This document shows positions 5,557 through 58,108 of a stretch of 64,000 nucleotides of DNA, piece by piece (position 1 is the stretch's first letter; each line of letters opens with the position of its first letter). Source of the DNA: a virus (Duplodnaviria; Heunggongvirae; Uroviricota; Caudoviricetes); IMG/VR virus record IMGVR_UViG_2645727901_000008. One strand, written 5' to 3'. A program made the position numbers and the translations under genes. The notes under the pieces were generated by a model. That model did no database searches and had not been told where the DNA came from. It saw only the letters and a program-made list of their open reading frames with translations.

Positions 5557-5859
5557 ATGAAAATAATTTCGGTAAAAACACTAAGGGATTTCTGGGCGAA
5601 GAATCCCGATGCAGAACAGCCATTAAAGGCATGGGTTGATGAAGCAACAAAGGCTGACTGGAAAAATCCGGCTGAGATCAAAGAACAGTACCGGACAGCC
5701 AGCATCCTTAAAAACAGGCGCGTGGTGTTCAATATTAAGGGAAATGATTACAGGTTAATTGTCGCAATTGCTTATCAGCGAGGATGGATGTTCGTTAAGT
5801 TTATTGGAACACATAAGGAATACGATGCCATTGAAGCGGATACAATAGAACTGGAGTAA
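5557..5859 (+). CDS. higB: HigB-family type II toxin (RelE-fold mRNA interferase)
   Basis: MKIISVKTLRDFW..VFNIKGNDYRLIVAIAY..VKFIGTHKEYD parallels E. coli HigB (FNVGGNELRVVAMV..THKEYD). AAGGA SD 8 nt before ATG 5557. The track's upstream M (5500) lies inside the promoter. Confidence 0.85.
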   Translation: MKIISVKTLRDFWAKNPDAEQPLKAWVDEATKADWKNPAEIKEQYRTASILKNRRVVFNIKGNDYRLIVAIAYQRGWMFVKFIGTHKEYDAIEADTIELE

Positions 5860-5862
5860 ATC

Positions 5863-6222
5863 ATGAACATTAAACCTATCCGTACAGAACAAGATTATGA
5901 GGCCGCACTGCGTGCGGTCGAACCGATGTTCGATAACGAACCGGAAATGAACACACCGGAAGGCGATTTCTTTGAAGTAATGTGCCTGCTCATTGAAGAG
6001 TACGAGAAAAAGCATTACCCAATTGAGCCACCATCACCTATTGAAGCCATTAAATTCCGTATGGAACAGCAAGGGCTGACCGTGAAGGATCTGGAACCGG
6101 CGATTGGTAAGTCAAATCGAGTTTACGAAGTGCTTAATGGGACACGAAATTTGACGTTACCTATGATTCGTCGTTTACATGCCCAGTTTGGTATTCCACT
6201 GGAAAGTCTGGTTGGTGTTTAA
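5863..6222 (+). CDS. higA: HigA-family antitoxin (XRE-type HTH)
   Basis: 119 aa, starts 3 nt after the higB stop. C-terminal HTH (LTVKDLEPAIGKSNRVYEVLNGTRNLTLPMIRRLHAQFGIP), the typical HigA layout. Confidence 0.85.
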   Translation: MNIKPIRTEQDYEAALRAVEPMFDNEPEMNTPEGDFFEVMCLLIEEYEKKHYPIEPPSPIEAIKFRMEQQGLTVKDLEPAIGKSNRVYEVLNGTRNLTLPMIRRLHAQFGIPLESLVGV

Positions 6223-6227
6223 GTTTG

Positions 6228-6272: not shown

Positions 6273-7022
6273 TTGATAGCTTGTATGGGCAAAAATTCAT
6301 CAACAGAAAACACATCTACAATTGACTCAATCAAGGGCACAATGGATGAAGCCATAAAAGATAAATTATTTAATAAATTATTTGCATATGTGGTGGTTTC
6401 ATTTTTTGTCGTTAATTGGCAAGAAATACTAATTTTGTTTAAATCTAAATATGATATATACACAACACTGTCTATAGTATGGGTAGGGGATAAATATCAA
6501 ATCCCTTATTTTGGAACCTTCATTGTATCTCCGTTTTTAGCTCACTTTGTGATGCCGTTTATATATGGCACTATTGCGTCCATAGTGATGCCTTATATTA
6601 CTATGCGTATATCAAAACTCACTGGTAGAAATTATGCGCAAATAAGATACATTGACCATGAATTTGACTCAGAAGAGAAAGCAAGAGTAAAGGCGTTGCT
6701 GAGAAACCTAAAGAAAAAAGAGGAAGAGCTTTTAAAATTAGAGGAACAAATAGAAGGTCAACAAAAAATACTGAATACAATCGAAGAAAAGAAGAGAGAG
6801 ATTGAGAGTGCCAGAGTGGCTCTGTATCACGGTATAAAAGTAATTGTTGATATATATAAAGCAAAAGATAAAAGGATTTCCACCAAAGAAGATTTTGCCG
6901 ATTTATTAAAAGCAATTGAAGAAAGTGATTTTTATAAAGACACTGGGTTGTGGGGTATTAATAAATTAATAGATGACGTGGAGACAATATATGAGTCTCA
7001 ATCGACATCAAAGGACAAGTAA
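6273..7022 (+). CDS. Membrane protein with a C-terminal coiled coil (accessory gene; possible Abi/exclusion factor)
   Basis: AT-rich ORF with hydrophobic segments (LFAYVVVSFFVVNWQEILILF; FGTFIVSPFLAHFVMPFIYGTIASIVMPYITM), then a K/E-rich heptad-like region. Starts at TTG 6273 (GAAGG SD) or ATG 6285. Confidence 0.45.
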   Translation: MIACMGKNSSTENTSTIDSIKGTMDEAIKDKLFNKLFAYVVVSFFVVNWQEILILFKSKYDIYTTLSIVWVGDKYQIPYFGTFIVSPFLAHFVMPFIYGTIASIVMPYITMRISKLTGRNYAQIRYIDHEFDSEEKARVKALLRNLKKKEEELLKLEEQIEGQQKILNTIEEKKREIESARVALYHGIKVIVDIYKAKDKRISTKEDFADLLKAIEESDFYKDTGLWGINKLIDDVETIYESQSTSKDK

Positions 7023-7025
7023 TAT

Positions 7026-7047
7026 AAAAGGCGGGATAACCGCCTTT
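7026..7047. terminator. Bidirectional hairpin terminator
   Basis: AAAA-GGCGG-GATAA-CCGCC-TTT between convergent genes. Confidence 0.5.
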
Positions 7048-7055
7048 GTTGTAAA

Positions 7056-8252
7056 TTAAGAACCTTTCTTCACATACTCCATGAACATTTTTTCAGCTTG
7101 TGCAGGTGGTGTTCCTGCCATGACCAGCGCATCAATGAACGCCTGCTTCTTCAGTGCGAACTGATCGGCCAGGCGTTGCTGAAGCTCCTTGTTTTTCTGT
7201 TTCTCACGTTGCAACGCCGCTTCTTTTGCTGCCGCCCGTTTTTTCTGTGCGTCTGACAACTTTCTGGCCTTGGTCAGTTGGTCACGTAGCTTGTCAATCT
7301 TGCCGTTGTCCTTTGCCAGTTTTGTGCTTAAAGCGGCCTGGCGCTTCTGATAGAGCCTCCATTCGCGCTTGGCAGCGTCAACGTTTGTTTTACTGTTGCG
7401 ATTGCGATTAAACTCCCTCTCGTCTTCTTTTGAGAAGTGTTTGGTTGTACGGCGGCGATCGTCACCAAATGCAATTTGCGTTGCGGCCTTTTGTAACGCA
7501 CGAGCAATACTCATTTGCCAACTAGCGGACTGTAACCGCGTCATTGAGTGGATCACGTGTTTACAGGCGACGCCTTGTAGCTTAGGGTTACGAACTTTTG
7601 GATAGGCGTATTCTTTTGGCGGGGCCAGGGCAAAGTTACCCGCAGTAGCGATGTAACGATACCAGTATTGATGACGACCACAGTCACAATCGAAAGACAC
7701 CCGCCCGGCGCACAGTGATTTAGTGATTTTCAGAGCTGATTTATCGTCTTCTGCGATGTCATCGACCATCTGATCCCATTCTTCAAAGCGTATCCGGACG
7801 ATATGGTGCTGGTGGACGGATATATCCGATGCTTCTACGCGGATATGAATCACGTTGTGGCGAAGAGATACGGGTGTAGCTCTTTTGATACCAGATCCGT
7901 CATCCACGGCGTTATTTGCACGCTTAATATCGATTGCCTGGCTGGATGCCACCAGCTGGGCGTATGTGATGCCAGCCGTCTTGCTGTCATATTTTTCGCG
8001 TGTTTTACTCCGTAGCTTTTCGAAACCTTTCAGGTCGTCTCGCGTGAAGAACGTGCCGCCTTTTTTCTTCCCTAACTTGAGAATATCTTCGGCGGATTTG
8101 TTCCTCAGTCTACCTGGCGTCAGCGTCCGGTGAGCTTGTCGGCGCTTACGGGTTTGTTCTTTCCTGATAAGGTCGAATAAACGCGTGAAGTCCTTAGAGG
8201 ACAGGCCGTCAGTGATATAGCGCCCGTCCTGGTTTTTCAGGAAATCAGGCAT
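7056..8252 (-). CDS. SWIM zinc-finger protein with a basic coiled-coil C-terminus
   Basis: CxC..CxH pattern: FDCDCGRHQYWYRY..GVACKHVIHS. The C-terminal ~100 aa are K/R/A/Q-rich. Confidence 0.5.
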   Translation of the reverse strand: MPDFLKNQDGRYITDGLSSKDFTRLFDLIRKEQTRKRRQAHRTLTPGRLRNKSAEDILKLGKKKGGTFFTRDDLKGFEKLRSKTREKYDSKTAGITYAQLVASSQAIDIKRANNAVDDGSGIKRATPVSLRHNVIHIRVEASDISVHQHHIVRIRFEEWDQMVDDIAEDDKSALKITKSLCAGRVSFDCDCGRHQYWYRYIATAGNFALAPPKEYAYPKVRNPKLQGVACKHVIHSMTRLQSASWQMSIARALQKAATQIAFGDDRRRTTKHFSKEDEREFNRNRNSKTNVDAAKREWRLYQKRQAALSTKLAKDNGKIDKLRDQLTKARKLSDAQKKRAAAKEAALQREKQKNKELQQRLADQFALKKQAFIDALVMAGTPPAQAEKMFMEYVKKGS

Positions 8253-55281: not shown

Positions 55282-56964
55282 TTAATTGCTCATCACAAAT
55301 TTTGCAAAGTTTATTAACTGTTCTGGCGTCCAGTTTTCCGGATCGTCACCGGACGACAACGGCGCGGATTCGTACATACCATGCTCGTTGTTTTGCTCTG
55401 ATTCATTCGCCTTAAACTCTTTGATCATGGTGTTGAGAGTGTCATCGTCGATGTGCAACTGCTCAGTGAACAGATAACGCATAAACGCGTCGCTACCAGC
55501 CAGTTTCGGGTTGTTCTGGATCTGGTCCATAATTTGGGAGATGACAGCAACAAAGTTGGCGCGTGCATCCAGTTCTCGGTTTTCCTCTTCCTGGATAGCA
55601 GTGTTCATTGAGTTGAATTGCACGTCATAAGGGCGGTTTGTTTCGGTGTAAACCTTGCCGTATTTATAAGCGAGGTGAATGTCCAGAAGCCGATAAATAG
55701 TTCGCTGGGCGGCCTGTCTGATCCAGTTCGCACGCAATGCAGCCTGGATAGCAGTTTGCTGCCAGCCGCCTTCTCCAAGCCCTCCGCTCATCTGATCAGC
55801 CCAGCCAAGCATTGTTGCGTCAATGCCGAGGCTTGCAGCAAGCTGCCGGAGGTGAAACATAACGTCTTCGATACCACTGATATCTGCGGGTATGGATTGC
55901 GTATCAATGGTGATGCCGTTCTTCCCGTCTCCCATAACAGGTATCAGATGGTTAAGCACAGTCGGAATAGCGTTGGCATTAATCGACCTTTGCGCCACCA
56001 GGTCACTATGACGCTTCAATGCCTGGCTGACGCCACGCGTATAGTTCGCCGCATTAACCGGGTCCAGTGTGTTCGTCGTAAGAGCAATCAGGCGGTCAAT
56101 TTTGGCTGCATTATTTCGCGTTGATTTCAGCGCGGCGAGCGAAGCACATAAATTAAGGTAAGGTTCATAGCTGTATTCCAGGAATGAAGTTCCGTAATTC
56201 TGCGTCTCCATTAACGGCTTATCAGCCTGATCACTTAACAGTGAATACCCTTTTGTACCGTAGCTAACCGGAATAACCTTATGCTGCGGCGTCCAATACG
56301 GGTTTTTCATGGAAACAAGATTCCACGGTTCGGTTATTACCCTGCGCAAACTATGCGTATCCAGAATGTAATCACCACTAAAACCGACCAGCTGGCTACC
56401 GCGATAAAATTCCTGGACGAAGTGTGGAAGAGTGTAATAACTGGATTCAATGCCAGTTATCCCTCTGCCCTGTTCAGCATAAGGTCGGACATAAGACACC
56501 CCAAAGATCGCCATAATCATGGCCCATGAAGGAAGTCCGTCATTAATCATTGCCCCCAAATCAGCTGTTAACTCTTCACACCTACTTACCGCCTCGGCAT
56601 CGGAACCATCTTTTGGCGAAAGCATGAATGCCAGCCCGGTTTTCTTTGAAGGCGCAAGCGCATGTGCAATATGAATGTTTAAAGCCGTTGAGATAGTCGG
56701 GCTTTTAGCCATCGTTTCCAGGATGTTGTACTTTTGCAGGCGCTCGCCGGGCAGTTCAGCGGATAAAGAAATTGAATCTGCTGCACTCGTCATGCCATCG
56801 CTGTTGCTACCCAGGATGCCTGGACGTAAAGCGGACAGGCCGGAACGAGCAACGACACTATGCCCGCTCGTAAAAACGACCGGATCGGCGGGCGTAACAT
56901 CACCACCGTTGAAGGCTTTCTTCAATGCCGACAGAAAGCCTTTGTTTTTGTCTTTCGTTGCCAT
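55282..56964 (-). CDS. prt: Portal protein candidate (P1 Prt position)
   Basis: 560-aa ORF followed by the protease/scaffold-like gene. Assigned by synteny and size only. Confidence 0.5.
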   Translation of the reverse strand: MATKDKNKGFLSALKKAFNGGDVTPADPVVFTSGHSVVARSGLSALRPGILGSNSDGMTSAADSISLSAELPGERLQKYNILETMAKSPTISTALNIHIAHALAPSKKTGLAFMLSPKDGSDAEAVSRCEELTADLGAMINDGLPSWAMIMAIFGVSYVRPYAEQGRGITGIESSYYTLPHFVQEFYRGSQLVGFSGDYILDTHSLRRVITEPWNLVSMKNPYWTPQHKVIPVSYGTKGYSLLSDQADKPLMETQNYGTSFLEYSYEPYLNLCASLAALKSTRNNAAKIDRLIALTTNTLDPVNAANYTRGVSQALKRHSDLVAQRSINANAIPTVLNHLIPVMGDGKNGITIDTQSIPADISGIEDVMFHLRQLAASLGIDATMLGWADQMSGGLGEGGWQQTAIQAALRANWIRQAAQRTIYRLLDIHLAYKYGKVYTETNRPYDVQFNSMNTAIQEEENRELDARANFVAVISQIMDQIQNNPKLAGSDAFMRYLFTEQLHIDDDTLNTMIKEFKANESEQNNEHGMYESAPLSSGDDPENWTPEQLINFAKFVMSN

Positions 56965-57048
56965 GAATCACCGCGAATTGTTTCCAGTTTCGCGGCAGCA
57001 TAATCAGTATGTGATTTGATAGGAGAGTTTTATTGGTGCTGTTAATGA

Positions 57049-57381
57049 TTACTTACACGCTTCCCTGCCCACATAGTCAGCGATGGAACCACTTACAATC
57101 CCCCCCATTTTGGGATCAGGTTTTGAATTTTTCATCTGTTCAAGCGTCTCCCCAGAACCAAGATACTTCACTTCATTTGTCATGCAATTATATATTCTCT
57201 TCGAATATGCTGTCCCAGATGGGCCTTCCCTTTTTGTAATGATAGTTTTATATTCACCTTCACGACCAATATCCAGCACTGTATAAGTAGCTTTTGGATC
57301 AGAAGGGATTTTTATCTTATAGGGCGCAGCACAAACTGATGCAGAAGCTAATAAAGCACAAACCAGGATTATATTTCTCAT
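57049..57381 (-). CDS. Secreted small protein (moron)
   Basis: Signal peptide MRNIILVCALLASASVCA. AT-rich. Confidence 0.45.
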   Translation of the reverse strand: MRNIILVCALLASASVCAAPYKIKIPSDPKATYTVLDIGREGEYKTIITKREGPSGTAYSKRIYNCMTNEVKYLGSGETLEQMKNSKPDPKMGGIVSGSIADYVGREACK

Positions 57382-57425
57382 AACTATACTCCATGTTATA
57401 AATTATCAAAGCTAAGTAAGTAAAA

Positions 57426-57983
57426 CTAATCTGGATCAACAATAAGTTGTGAAACCTTCGCTGCAAGTCTTATATAGCGTTCAGCTTCATTTCTGGTGAT
57501 TTCAAAATCCAGAAAGTGCGCGGCTTCATTTCTTAGCGAGCGAAGCCGTTTTAACAGCAAAGCAGCGGAATCTTCAAGTTTTCCTTCTTGAATCAACCAG
57601 TCAATGAATAGTTCTGGATTCCGTTTCGGCTTTAACCCTCCCTGTATAAAACCAGAGCGCCCGGCAGCCTCCTCTACCATCAACCATGACTCCATAATAG
57701 CAGCTCTAGGTGAAAAATCAGCAATTCTCTCTAATTGTGCGATTTTATTTATATATTCAGAGTTATTATTACCATTGTTAATATTTTTATTCCCAACTGA
57801 TGCATCTGTTGCTAATACTTCTGCTGCGGTTAGTCCCGCATTAAACTCAGCTTCAGCTGCTCCAATCTTGAATCTACTCAGACGTACTATTAACTCCTTA
57901 ATATCAACCCCATACTTATTAACAAACCACACAAACACCAATGGCCATGCAAGAGCTGAAACCAAATCTGTAAATGATGACAT
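57426..57983 (-). CDS. N-terminally membrane-anchored protein with a DUF4145-like C-terminal domain
   Basis: LVSALAWPLVFVWFV (TM), an N-rich linker, then ..LLLKRLRSLRNEAAHFLDFEITRNEAERYI (the LRxxRNxAAH signature I associate with DUF4145). AT-rich. Confidence 0.4.
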   Translation of the reverse strand: MSSFTDLVSALAWPLVFVWFVNKYGVDIKELIVRLSRFKIGAAEAEFNAGLTAAEVLATDASVGNKNINNGNNNSEYINKIAQLERIADFSPRAAIMESWLMVEEAAGRSGFIQGGLKPKRNPELFIDWLIQEGKLEDSAALLLKRLRSLRNEAAHFLDFEITRNEAERYIRLAAKVSQLIVDPD

Positions 57984-58108
57984 CGGTTATCCTCATTCAT
58001 TATATTCTCAGCTAGTTTACATATTATTAAACAGGAACAAAAATGAATTATGCGCCCATCTTCAGATATGTTATGAACGCACAGAAAGAGCATTAAGTTA
58101 CATTGATG

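Follow-up and report, generated by a model that had tools for sequence, protein, structure and literature searches.

The DNA analysed here is the 64,000-nucleotide (nt) IMG/VR record IMGVR_UViG_2645727901_000008 (Caudoviricetes), hereafter the window, and the region of interest is a pair of small AT-rich open reading frames (ORFs) lying between ddrB and the portal gene prt, which encode proteins of 185 and 110 amino acids (aa). The segment 54000–61000 is 97% identical end to end to Escherichia phage D6, a plasmid prophage of the P1 family, and judged from this identity the window is a D6-like phage-plasmid of that family. According to the D6 annotation, the minus-strand genes follow each other here in the order lydA-lydB-hdf-darA-ddrA-ddrB, orf24, orf23 and prt-pro-repL, and Pfam and PHROGs recover DarA_N/DarA_C, DdrA-like, ddrB-ParB, portal and Pro in the window. 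The 185-aa and 110-aa ORFs correspond to orf24 and orf23 of D6, respectively; they are co-oriented, 44 bp apart, and each is preceded by a Shine-Dalgarno-like sequence (GAGGA at 57990–57994 for the former, GGAG upstream of 57381 for the latter). The main features of the locus are the following:

57426..57983, minus strand: 185-aa gene (D6 orf24), encoding a hydrophobic helix with a Trp-Pro (WP) motif and a DUF4145/HEPN domain, a predicted membrane-tethered ribonuclease (RNase)
57049..57381, minus strand: 110-aa gene (D6 orf23), encoding a predicted secreted, Protein-E-like small periplasmic protein
57018..58127: AT-rich insertion of about 1.1 kb, with approximate limits taken from an alignment of filled and empty sites; it also takes the place of the final ~10 codons of ddrB
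58109..59485, minus strand: ddrB-like gene, upstream flank and last gene of the dar late operon, with a 3' end altered by the insertion (Pfam ddrB-ParB, E=1.9e-42)
55282..56964, minus strand: portal gene prt, downstream flank (phrog_1497, E=7.9e-229, and D6 annotation)

Both ORFs are, on comparative grounds, real genes, because each belongs to a conserved family of about one hundred homologous clusters with invariant motifs (at 90% identity, 95 clusters for the 185-aa protein and 108 for the 110-aa protein). The original prediction, made from the window alone, had placed two low-GC ORFs between ddrB and the portal gene, and its coordinates prove exact. The GC content of the whole cassette (57018–58127) is 38.6%, versus 49.2% for ddrB, 49.1% for prt and 47.5% for the whole window, and a sliding measurement gives 0.36–0.42 across ~56950–58300 versus 0.47–0.53 on both sides. 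The limits of the insert were obtained by aligning three empty-site plasmids with the window and D6: on the prt side, homology starts again at AAATCACATACTG (57017), and on the ddrB side it ends after ATGTTTGA (58128). No convincing direct or inverted repeat that would hint at transposition or site-specific insertion flanks the insert. The C-terminus of ddrB (58109–58150, minus strand) reads ...GKGLIFSMFESTSVG in filled sites and ...GKGLNFAMFENSTVLNNCSMEN in empty sites; as the two differ, the insertion would have brought or created a new ddrB tail.

The distribution of this DNA among related elements is patchy. The region is matched by 120 D6-like records in the plasmid collection, 16 of which carry the cassette, and 14 of these 16 carry the whole of it at at least 99% identity, the other two being error-rich records. 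About 75% of the 120 related plasmids have an empty junction in which ddrB and prt are separated by a spacer of 64 bp. Nine of 5,426 complete genomes of E. coli contain the cassette, every time on a plasmid of ~90 kb and never on the chromosome; blood, stool and livestock are among the sources of the Salmonella and E. coli that carry it. Conservation in all relatives as a part of the virion operon is thus not what was found, since most of the 120 relatives lack the two genes.

The two error-rich records are the Salmonella plasmids pSa1423-90k and pSa1423-160k (NZ_MK356557/8). Their cassette copies are 91–94% identical and their ORFs are fragmented across otherwise conserved genes, one fragment being annotated as 'poly(3-hydroxybutyrate) depolymerase'. 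This fragmentation probably reflects sequencing or assembly errors rather than divergence, and these copies were left out of the analysis of nonsynonymous versus synonymous substitution rates (dN/dS) because of their error-rich appearance.

A query made of the empty site also retrieved alternative cargo at the ddrB-prt junction, of HicA type, of IS200/IS605-TnpB type and in the form of a P1-like ddrB-hxr arrangement. In NZ_CP104667.1 (1899–2543 of the fetched locus) and NZ_LR890273.1, a gene of the HicA toxin family and a 143-aa ORF, possibly its antitoxin, lie there in opposite orientation, and this cargo abuts the same conserved element upstream of prt as the cassette does. NZ_LT906557.1 (8320–10009 of the fetched locus) carries an IS200/IS605 tnpA and a gene encoding a TnpB RNA-guided endonuclease, no ddrB being annotated at this place. 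Lastly, pB2C_96 harbours a long P1-like ddrB together with hxr-like and XRE genes. Hotspot behaviour of this junction across D6/P1-like genomes had been proposed as a point to check, and the sequences bear it out: the junction is a small cargo hotspot of P1/D6-type phage-plasmids, at which toxin-like, defence-like and insertion sequence (IS) cargo would be swapped. The accompanying statement that P1 has IS1 and accessory genes at the equivalent junction is approximately right at best. In P1, the darA operon does end with ddrB-hxr followed by isaB/IS1/isaA, but prt is located elsewhere, next to darB. Taken as a whole, the additional DNA has a deviating GC content and is missing from relatives, as is typical of a 'moron', and the region is probably a horizontally acquired accessory cassette that comprises two independently mobile genes, real yet fairly ordinary.

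The 185-aa protein can be divided into the following parts:

57921..57974, minus strand: N-terminal hydrophobic helix, residues 4–21, including W13-P14 and followed by a K/R-rich stretch; putative N-out/C-in anchor
57765..57803, minus strand: Asn-rich variable linker, residues 61–73, predicted to be disordered (AlphaFold confidence score, pLDDT, below 50 at residues 64–72; variable and gapped in the alignment)
57438..57764, minus strand: helical HEPN (DUF4145) domain, residues 74–182
57516..57533, minus strand: R151-N-E-A-A-H156, predicted Rx4H catalytic motif of HEPN domains (sequence and conservation in 51 homologues)

The N-terminal helix, the Asn-rich linker and the LRSLRNEAAH stretch on which the original prediction relied are all present, with a borderline transmembrane score. 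The proposed relationship to DUF4145 also withstands examination, more clearly for the family than for its D6 member. The single sequence gives 20.0 bits (E=7e-4) with DUF4145 (PF13643) and E=9e-3 with HEPN_RiboL-PSP, whereas 42 of 51 family members match DUF4145 at E≤0.01 (best 2.8e-8), 22 match HEPN_Swt1 and nine RiboL-PSP-HEPN. Most homologues have a precomputed PF13643 match, and in RefSeq D6 orf24 already bears the DUF4145 label. The only NCBIfam match is a weak HsdR-like one (E=0.033), which fits the occurrence of DUF4145 in type I restriction enzymes. Alignment of the 51 homologues reveals invariant S91-P-R-A-A, E98, W100, E104, R151, A154 and Y170, and N152 and H156 are conserved in at least 90% of them, so that the Rx4H motif (a case of the conserved Rx4-6H of HEPN domains) is intact. 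The AlphaFold model (pLDDT 81.8) consists of a single long helix (residues 2–60), the disordered linker and a C-terminal domain with the helical-bundle fold of HEPN. From these profile matches, the 185-aa protein is a member of the DUF4145/HEPN family, an assignment that is solid at the family level, and it is predicted to be an RNase of the abortive-infection type.

The membrane anchoring of this protein is plausible, given the borderline hydrophobicity and what has been described for similar proteins. The hydrophobic segment LVSALAWPLVFVWFV has a Kyte-Doolittle mean of 1.63 over 19 residues, which is borderline for a transmembrane (TM) helix; the corresponding values in relatives range from 1.2 to 2.4, most of them from 1.6 to 2.4. 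W13-P14 is invariant in one alignment of the family and near-invariant in another, and the helix is almost always followed by K/R residues, in agreement with the positive-inside rule. Anantharaman, Makarova, Burroughs, Koonin and Aravind (2013; PMC3710099) described DUF4145-type HEPN proteins with a single N-terminal TM helix and a strictly conserved WP, and predicted that they are inner-membrane proteins whose cytoplasmic HEPN domains respond to surface stimuli, with 'stimulus-dependent RNA degradation'. The 185-aa protein has the same architecture, i.e. a single WP helix (whose insertion in the membrane is a prediction) followed by a DUF4145-type HEPN with Rx4H, and no structural difference from this group, which was itself defined in silico, was found. 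It can thus be considered as a member that is carried by a phage-plasmid.

This group is very large. A profile of the 60 N-terminal residues (the WP module) retrieves 5,517 representative clusters, 731 of them at E≤1e-10; nearly all the matched proteins are ~180–200 aa long, and those sampled carry HEPN matches. Within this large family, which is known computationally and is experimentally uncharacterised, the 185-aa protein is thus nothing out of the ordinary. The genes of the 185-aa family are mostly stand-alone and always have a GC content of ~37–42%, versus 42–59% for their flanks. One homologue has an integrase gene as its neighbour, on a Salmonella island located next to gtrABC/P22-like genes, another lies between nrdG and arsP in the chromosome of Serratia, and a third adjoins a gene encoding an AbiTii protein. 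In a P2-like prophage (1044–2319 of the fetched locus), a homologue is inserted between the tail gene S and the baseplate gene V, convergent with a gene encoding 8xMP (octameric membrane protein), a site that looks like a small defence hotspot. In contigs that resemble satellites, others separate a D5-like primase gene from capsid genes. Slots of this sort typically house accessory or defence genes. A conserved 175-aa ORF (66–71% identity between contexts; 6704–7231, 5699–6226 and 5702–6226 of the fetched loci) lies downstream of the WP-HEPN gene in Serratia chromosomes and in two viral contigs. This ORF has no Pfam match, is absent from D6 and may be a partner in one sub-clade of the family.

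Several DUF4145 HEPN proteins have defence activity, namely the abortive-infection RNase RAZR/PD-T7-4 (PMC13017515), BxaP (PMC10799925) and Ishtar1, which acts against plasmids (bioRxiv 10.64898/2026.07.06.735840). In RAZR, a Cys4 zinc ribbon forms the N-terminus and activation occurs through assembly around rings of phage portal or Gp77, whereas the 185-aa protein has the hydrophobic WP helix in place of the ribbon, has no cluster of Cys in its sequence and has no match in PADLOC. A search of PDB sequences with the family profile gave marginal matches only and no RAZR structure; one of the marginal matches is HepS (E=0.18), a single-HEPN abortive-infection tRNase encoded by the Salmonella prophage Gifsy-1 (PMC13043305; PDB 9oij). 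HepS and the 185-aa protein are both prophage-encoded stand-alone HEPN proteins, and their similarity is local, around R-N-x-x-A-H, without significant overall similarity. Unlike the 185-aa protein, HepS is a soluble tetramer that is triggered by a siphovirus tail-tip protein and has no membrane helix. As RAZR, BxaP, Ishtar1 and HepS all lack the WP helix, the 185-aa protein might work like them and would not be a member of any of these systems. The immune system called 'HEPN/TM' of phage-inducible chromosomal islands (PICI; FS_HEPN_TM in DefenseFinder) might be related to the 185-aa protein. A review mentions it (PMC12948488), and the homologues in contigs that resemble satellites are a further pointer.

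HEPN domains are also the toxins of HEPN-MNT pairs (PMC3710099), and a HicA-family gene with its possible antitoxin occupies the exact same junction in NZ_CP104667.1 and NZ_LR890273.1. The 185-aa protein could therefore be viewed as a maintenance toxin of the plasmid-prophage, which would act by post-segregational killing in the manner of the HicA-type module. This is very improbable, as the genes next to it, ddrB and that of an exported protein unable to neutralise a domain in the cytoplasm, include no MNT or other gene resembling an antitoxin, and as the genes of this family mostly stand alone.

The 110-aa protein had been predicted to have a signal peptide and two Cys residues. This description is accurate, apart from a third Cys, at position 17, within the signal peptide:

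57325..57381, minus strand: signal peptide, residues 1–19, MRNIILVCALLASASVCA followed by A, of the signal-peptidase-I type without a good lipobox (hydrophobicity scan)

Cys66 and Cys109 are invariant across 53 homologues, and Cys17 lies in the poor lipobox context ASVC. The N-termini and signal peptides of the family are variable, a few having SAC lipoboxes typical of lipoproteins, whereas the mature domain is highly conserved. The AlphaFold model of the 110-aa protein (pLDDT 91.8) is an antiparallel sheet with a C-terminal helix, and Foldseek against viral models matches it to 'Surface-adhesin protein E' with a probability of 1.0. Protein E of Haemophilus influenzae (Pfam Adhesin_E; PDB 3zh5) consists of a sheet of six strands to which a conserved disulphide ties a helix (PMC7857515), and the positions of C66 and C109 fit this sheet-helix bridge. 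The 110-aa protein is thus predicted, from its model, to adopt a Protein-E-like fold. It differs from Protein E by its length (~90 aa for the mature protein versus ~140 aa), by the lack of a lipobox and by the lack of any significant sequence or Pfam match, and it is not known to bind host factors. More generally, no Pfam family and no match in the PDB sequence search were found for the 110-aa protein. Two candidate relationships were discarded: a match of the family to flagellin repeats in PDB is an artefact, being the sum of four weak repeats, and the label 'DUF2511' borne by one relative in UniRef is not reproduced by Pfam on the 53 members, so that the link with YebY was dropped.

The 110-aa family has 120 matches in IMG/VR viral contigs, and the GC content of its genes is below that of the flanks in 51 of 78 loci and never above. 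In 41 of 76 viral loci the gene is directly upstream of the tape-measure gene; it follows a baseplate gene in 16 and directly follows a CI-like repressor gene in ~9. According to these genomic data, the 110-aa protein is a common prophage moron, and its recurrent slots, including the one upstream of the tape-measure gene, support an envelope-acting function for the family. The most frequent of these slots is that of HK97 gene 15, a superinfection-exclusion moron located between the tail chaperone and tape-measure genes (Cumby et al. 2012; PMC3594210). Both encode small envelope proteins and have a GC content below that of their surroundings. However, HK97 gp15 is an inner-membrane YebO-like protein with which no relationship was found or expected, and the D6 gene is not located in a tail operon.

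Given its fold, the 110-aa protein might alternatively be a lysogenic-conversion factor that would help the host to adhere or to resist serum, in the way of Haemophilus Protein E or of lambda Bor. The shared position of the sheet-helix disulphide, the lipoprotein nature of some homologues and the sources of carriers (blood, stool and livestock, for Salmonella and E. coli) are consistent with this view. Against it, the absence of a lipobox in the D6 copy makes surface display unlikely, the sequence similarity to Protein E is negligible, and the family is common in prophages of environmental Pseudomonas and Xanthomonas. A function of this kind is therefore considered unlikely.

To see whether the two genes constitute a conserved system, the window and 108 fetched loci were examined. 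Members of the two families lie side by side in D6-like elements only, i.e. the window, D6 and two IMG/VR contigs at at least 99% identity. In the 99 non-D6 loci (17 with the HEPN gene only and 82 with the 110-aa gene only), the partner family was found in none within ~5 kb. The idea that the two genes form a functional pair therefore does not survive this survey. Because they co-occur only in D6-like loci and because one sub-clade of the 185-aa family has a different neighbour, the 175-aa ORF, their pairing is, as far as sequences tell, lineage-specific: they are neighbours by history and not a conserved system. A two-component device, in which the periplasmic 110-aa protein would act as a sensor that signals to, or restrains, the membrane-anchored HEPN effector, could be proposed from the adjacency, common orientation and close spacing of genes acquired together in one low-GC block; the predicted locations of the two proteins make a relay from envelope to cytoplasm conceivable. 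This is quite improbable, not only in view of the survey and of the distinct recurrent contexts of each family, but also as the HEPN protein is predicted to expose just ~3–6 residues in the periplasm, which leaves little to contact.

Considering all these data, the cassette is probably best explained as an accessory moron that associates a predicted WP-HEPN RNase of the abortive-infection type and a putatively envelope-acting 110-aa protein, and a role in defence or exclusion is plausible, if only as an inference. Its functioning could be pictured as follows. Held in the inner membrane by its hydrophobic helix, the 185-aa protein would have its HEPN domain on the cytoplasmic side. It would remain inactive until it meets a trigger, either a perturbation of the envelope or membrane or a phage protein, and activation might proceed through dimerisation of HEPN. 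The activated protein would then cleave RNA, leading to cell arrest, and the infection by the competing phage or plasmid would be aborted. Independently of this, the 110-aa protein would be exported to the periplasm, where the invariant cysteines would bridge the sheet to the C-terminal helix. Its site of action would be the envelope, where superinfection exclusion or interference with a receptor or with entry is the likeliest role, an interaction with the host being the alternative. A bolder version can be imagined, in which WP-HEPN would be a new abortive-infection sensor of the state of the inner membrane: the Trp-Pro helix would perceive genome injection, pinholin or holin, or a conjugative pore and relay this to the RNase, and the cassette, with a periplasmic Protein-E-like entry blocker, would be a two-layer envelope defence island. 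This version is speculative and rather improbable.

Several observations weigh against the interpretation as a defence or exclusion moron. Regarding the 185-aa protein, its DUF4145 score is below the gathering cut-off (23.1 bits), and its hydrophobic segment is short, about 15–18 residues, in addition to its borderline hydrophobicity. Furthermore, an active HEPN toxin without a visible antitoxin or partner must be self-restrained in some way. The 110-aa protein resembles Protein E in structure only; the best match to Adhesin_E (PF16747) is E=0.085 in one of 53 members, and the D6 copy lacks a lipobox. No match to either protein was found in PADLOC at E≤1. Finally, the cassette is co-oriented with the dar and prt late operons, no terminator-like site was found between ddrB, the cassette and prt, and a promoter scan returned five candidates versus 3.9 expected from shuffled sequence, which is not above chance. 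The cassette may thus be expressed only late, in lytic growth, which fits a lysogen-protecting moron less well. One sequence is a possible promoter of its own:

57999..58004, minus strand: TATAAT, -10-like, 15 nt upstream of the start codon of the 185-aa gene, with no convincing -35 (sequence)

The same orientation, the lack of terminators on both sides of the cassette and of a convincing sigma-70 promoter, together with the many 110-aa homologues located inside tail operons, would also suit functions of the lytic cycle that are expressed with the late operons. The cassette would then provide, for instance, an RNase involved in host shut-off or in the exclusion of competitors during lytic growth, an additional anti-restriction or virion component, or a periplasmic helper of lysis or release. 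This explanation has a low probability. The genes are absent from ~85% of otherwise near-identical D6-like plasmids and are therefore dispensable for virion production. In addition, 185-aa homologues are found in non-phage chromosomal settings, such as the nrdG-arsP locus of Serratia, and the position of some 110-aa genes directly after CI-like repressor genes is one that is expressed in lysogeny.

If the defence or exclusion reading of the cassette is correct, D6 and its natural empty-site relatives would provide an isogenic system for the very large WP-HEPN family, and the same system would serve a very common and unnamed family of Protein-E-like prophage morons. The hotspot between ddrB and prt would bear on the competition between other mobile elements and these plasmids, which are often found in Salmonella and E. 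coli of patients and food animals. The DUF4145 label is already in RefSeq and both genes belong to known kinds; the main value of the cassette would lie in a tractable entry to two large families.

The region that separates the cassette from prt carries two further features, both in the flank:

56999..57017, minus strand: conserved element AAATCACATACTGATTATG, next to the insertion point on its downstream side and unchanged between filled and empty sites; putative late promoter of prt-pro
56971..56995, minus strand: hairpin CCGCGAA-N11-TTCGCGG, ending 6 nt before the prt start codon and belonging to the flank, not to the insert

The element AAATCACATACTGATTATG is unique in the window and is followed by the hairpin and then by the start codon of prt. 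It matches the -22 box of P1 LPpro at 5 of 9 positions, and no convincing match to the P1-style late-promoter pattern was found in the cassette. The window contains no site that fits the operator consensus of P1 C1, and no RNA family of Rfam was detected in 56700–58400. The hairpin folds with -16.4 kcal/mol (z=-2.0) and may regulate the translation or transcription of prt; its stem is CCGCAAA/TTTGCGG in D6 and in the empty-site plasmids, a compensatory change from G-C to A-U relative to the window.

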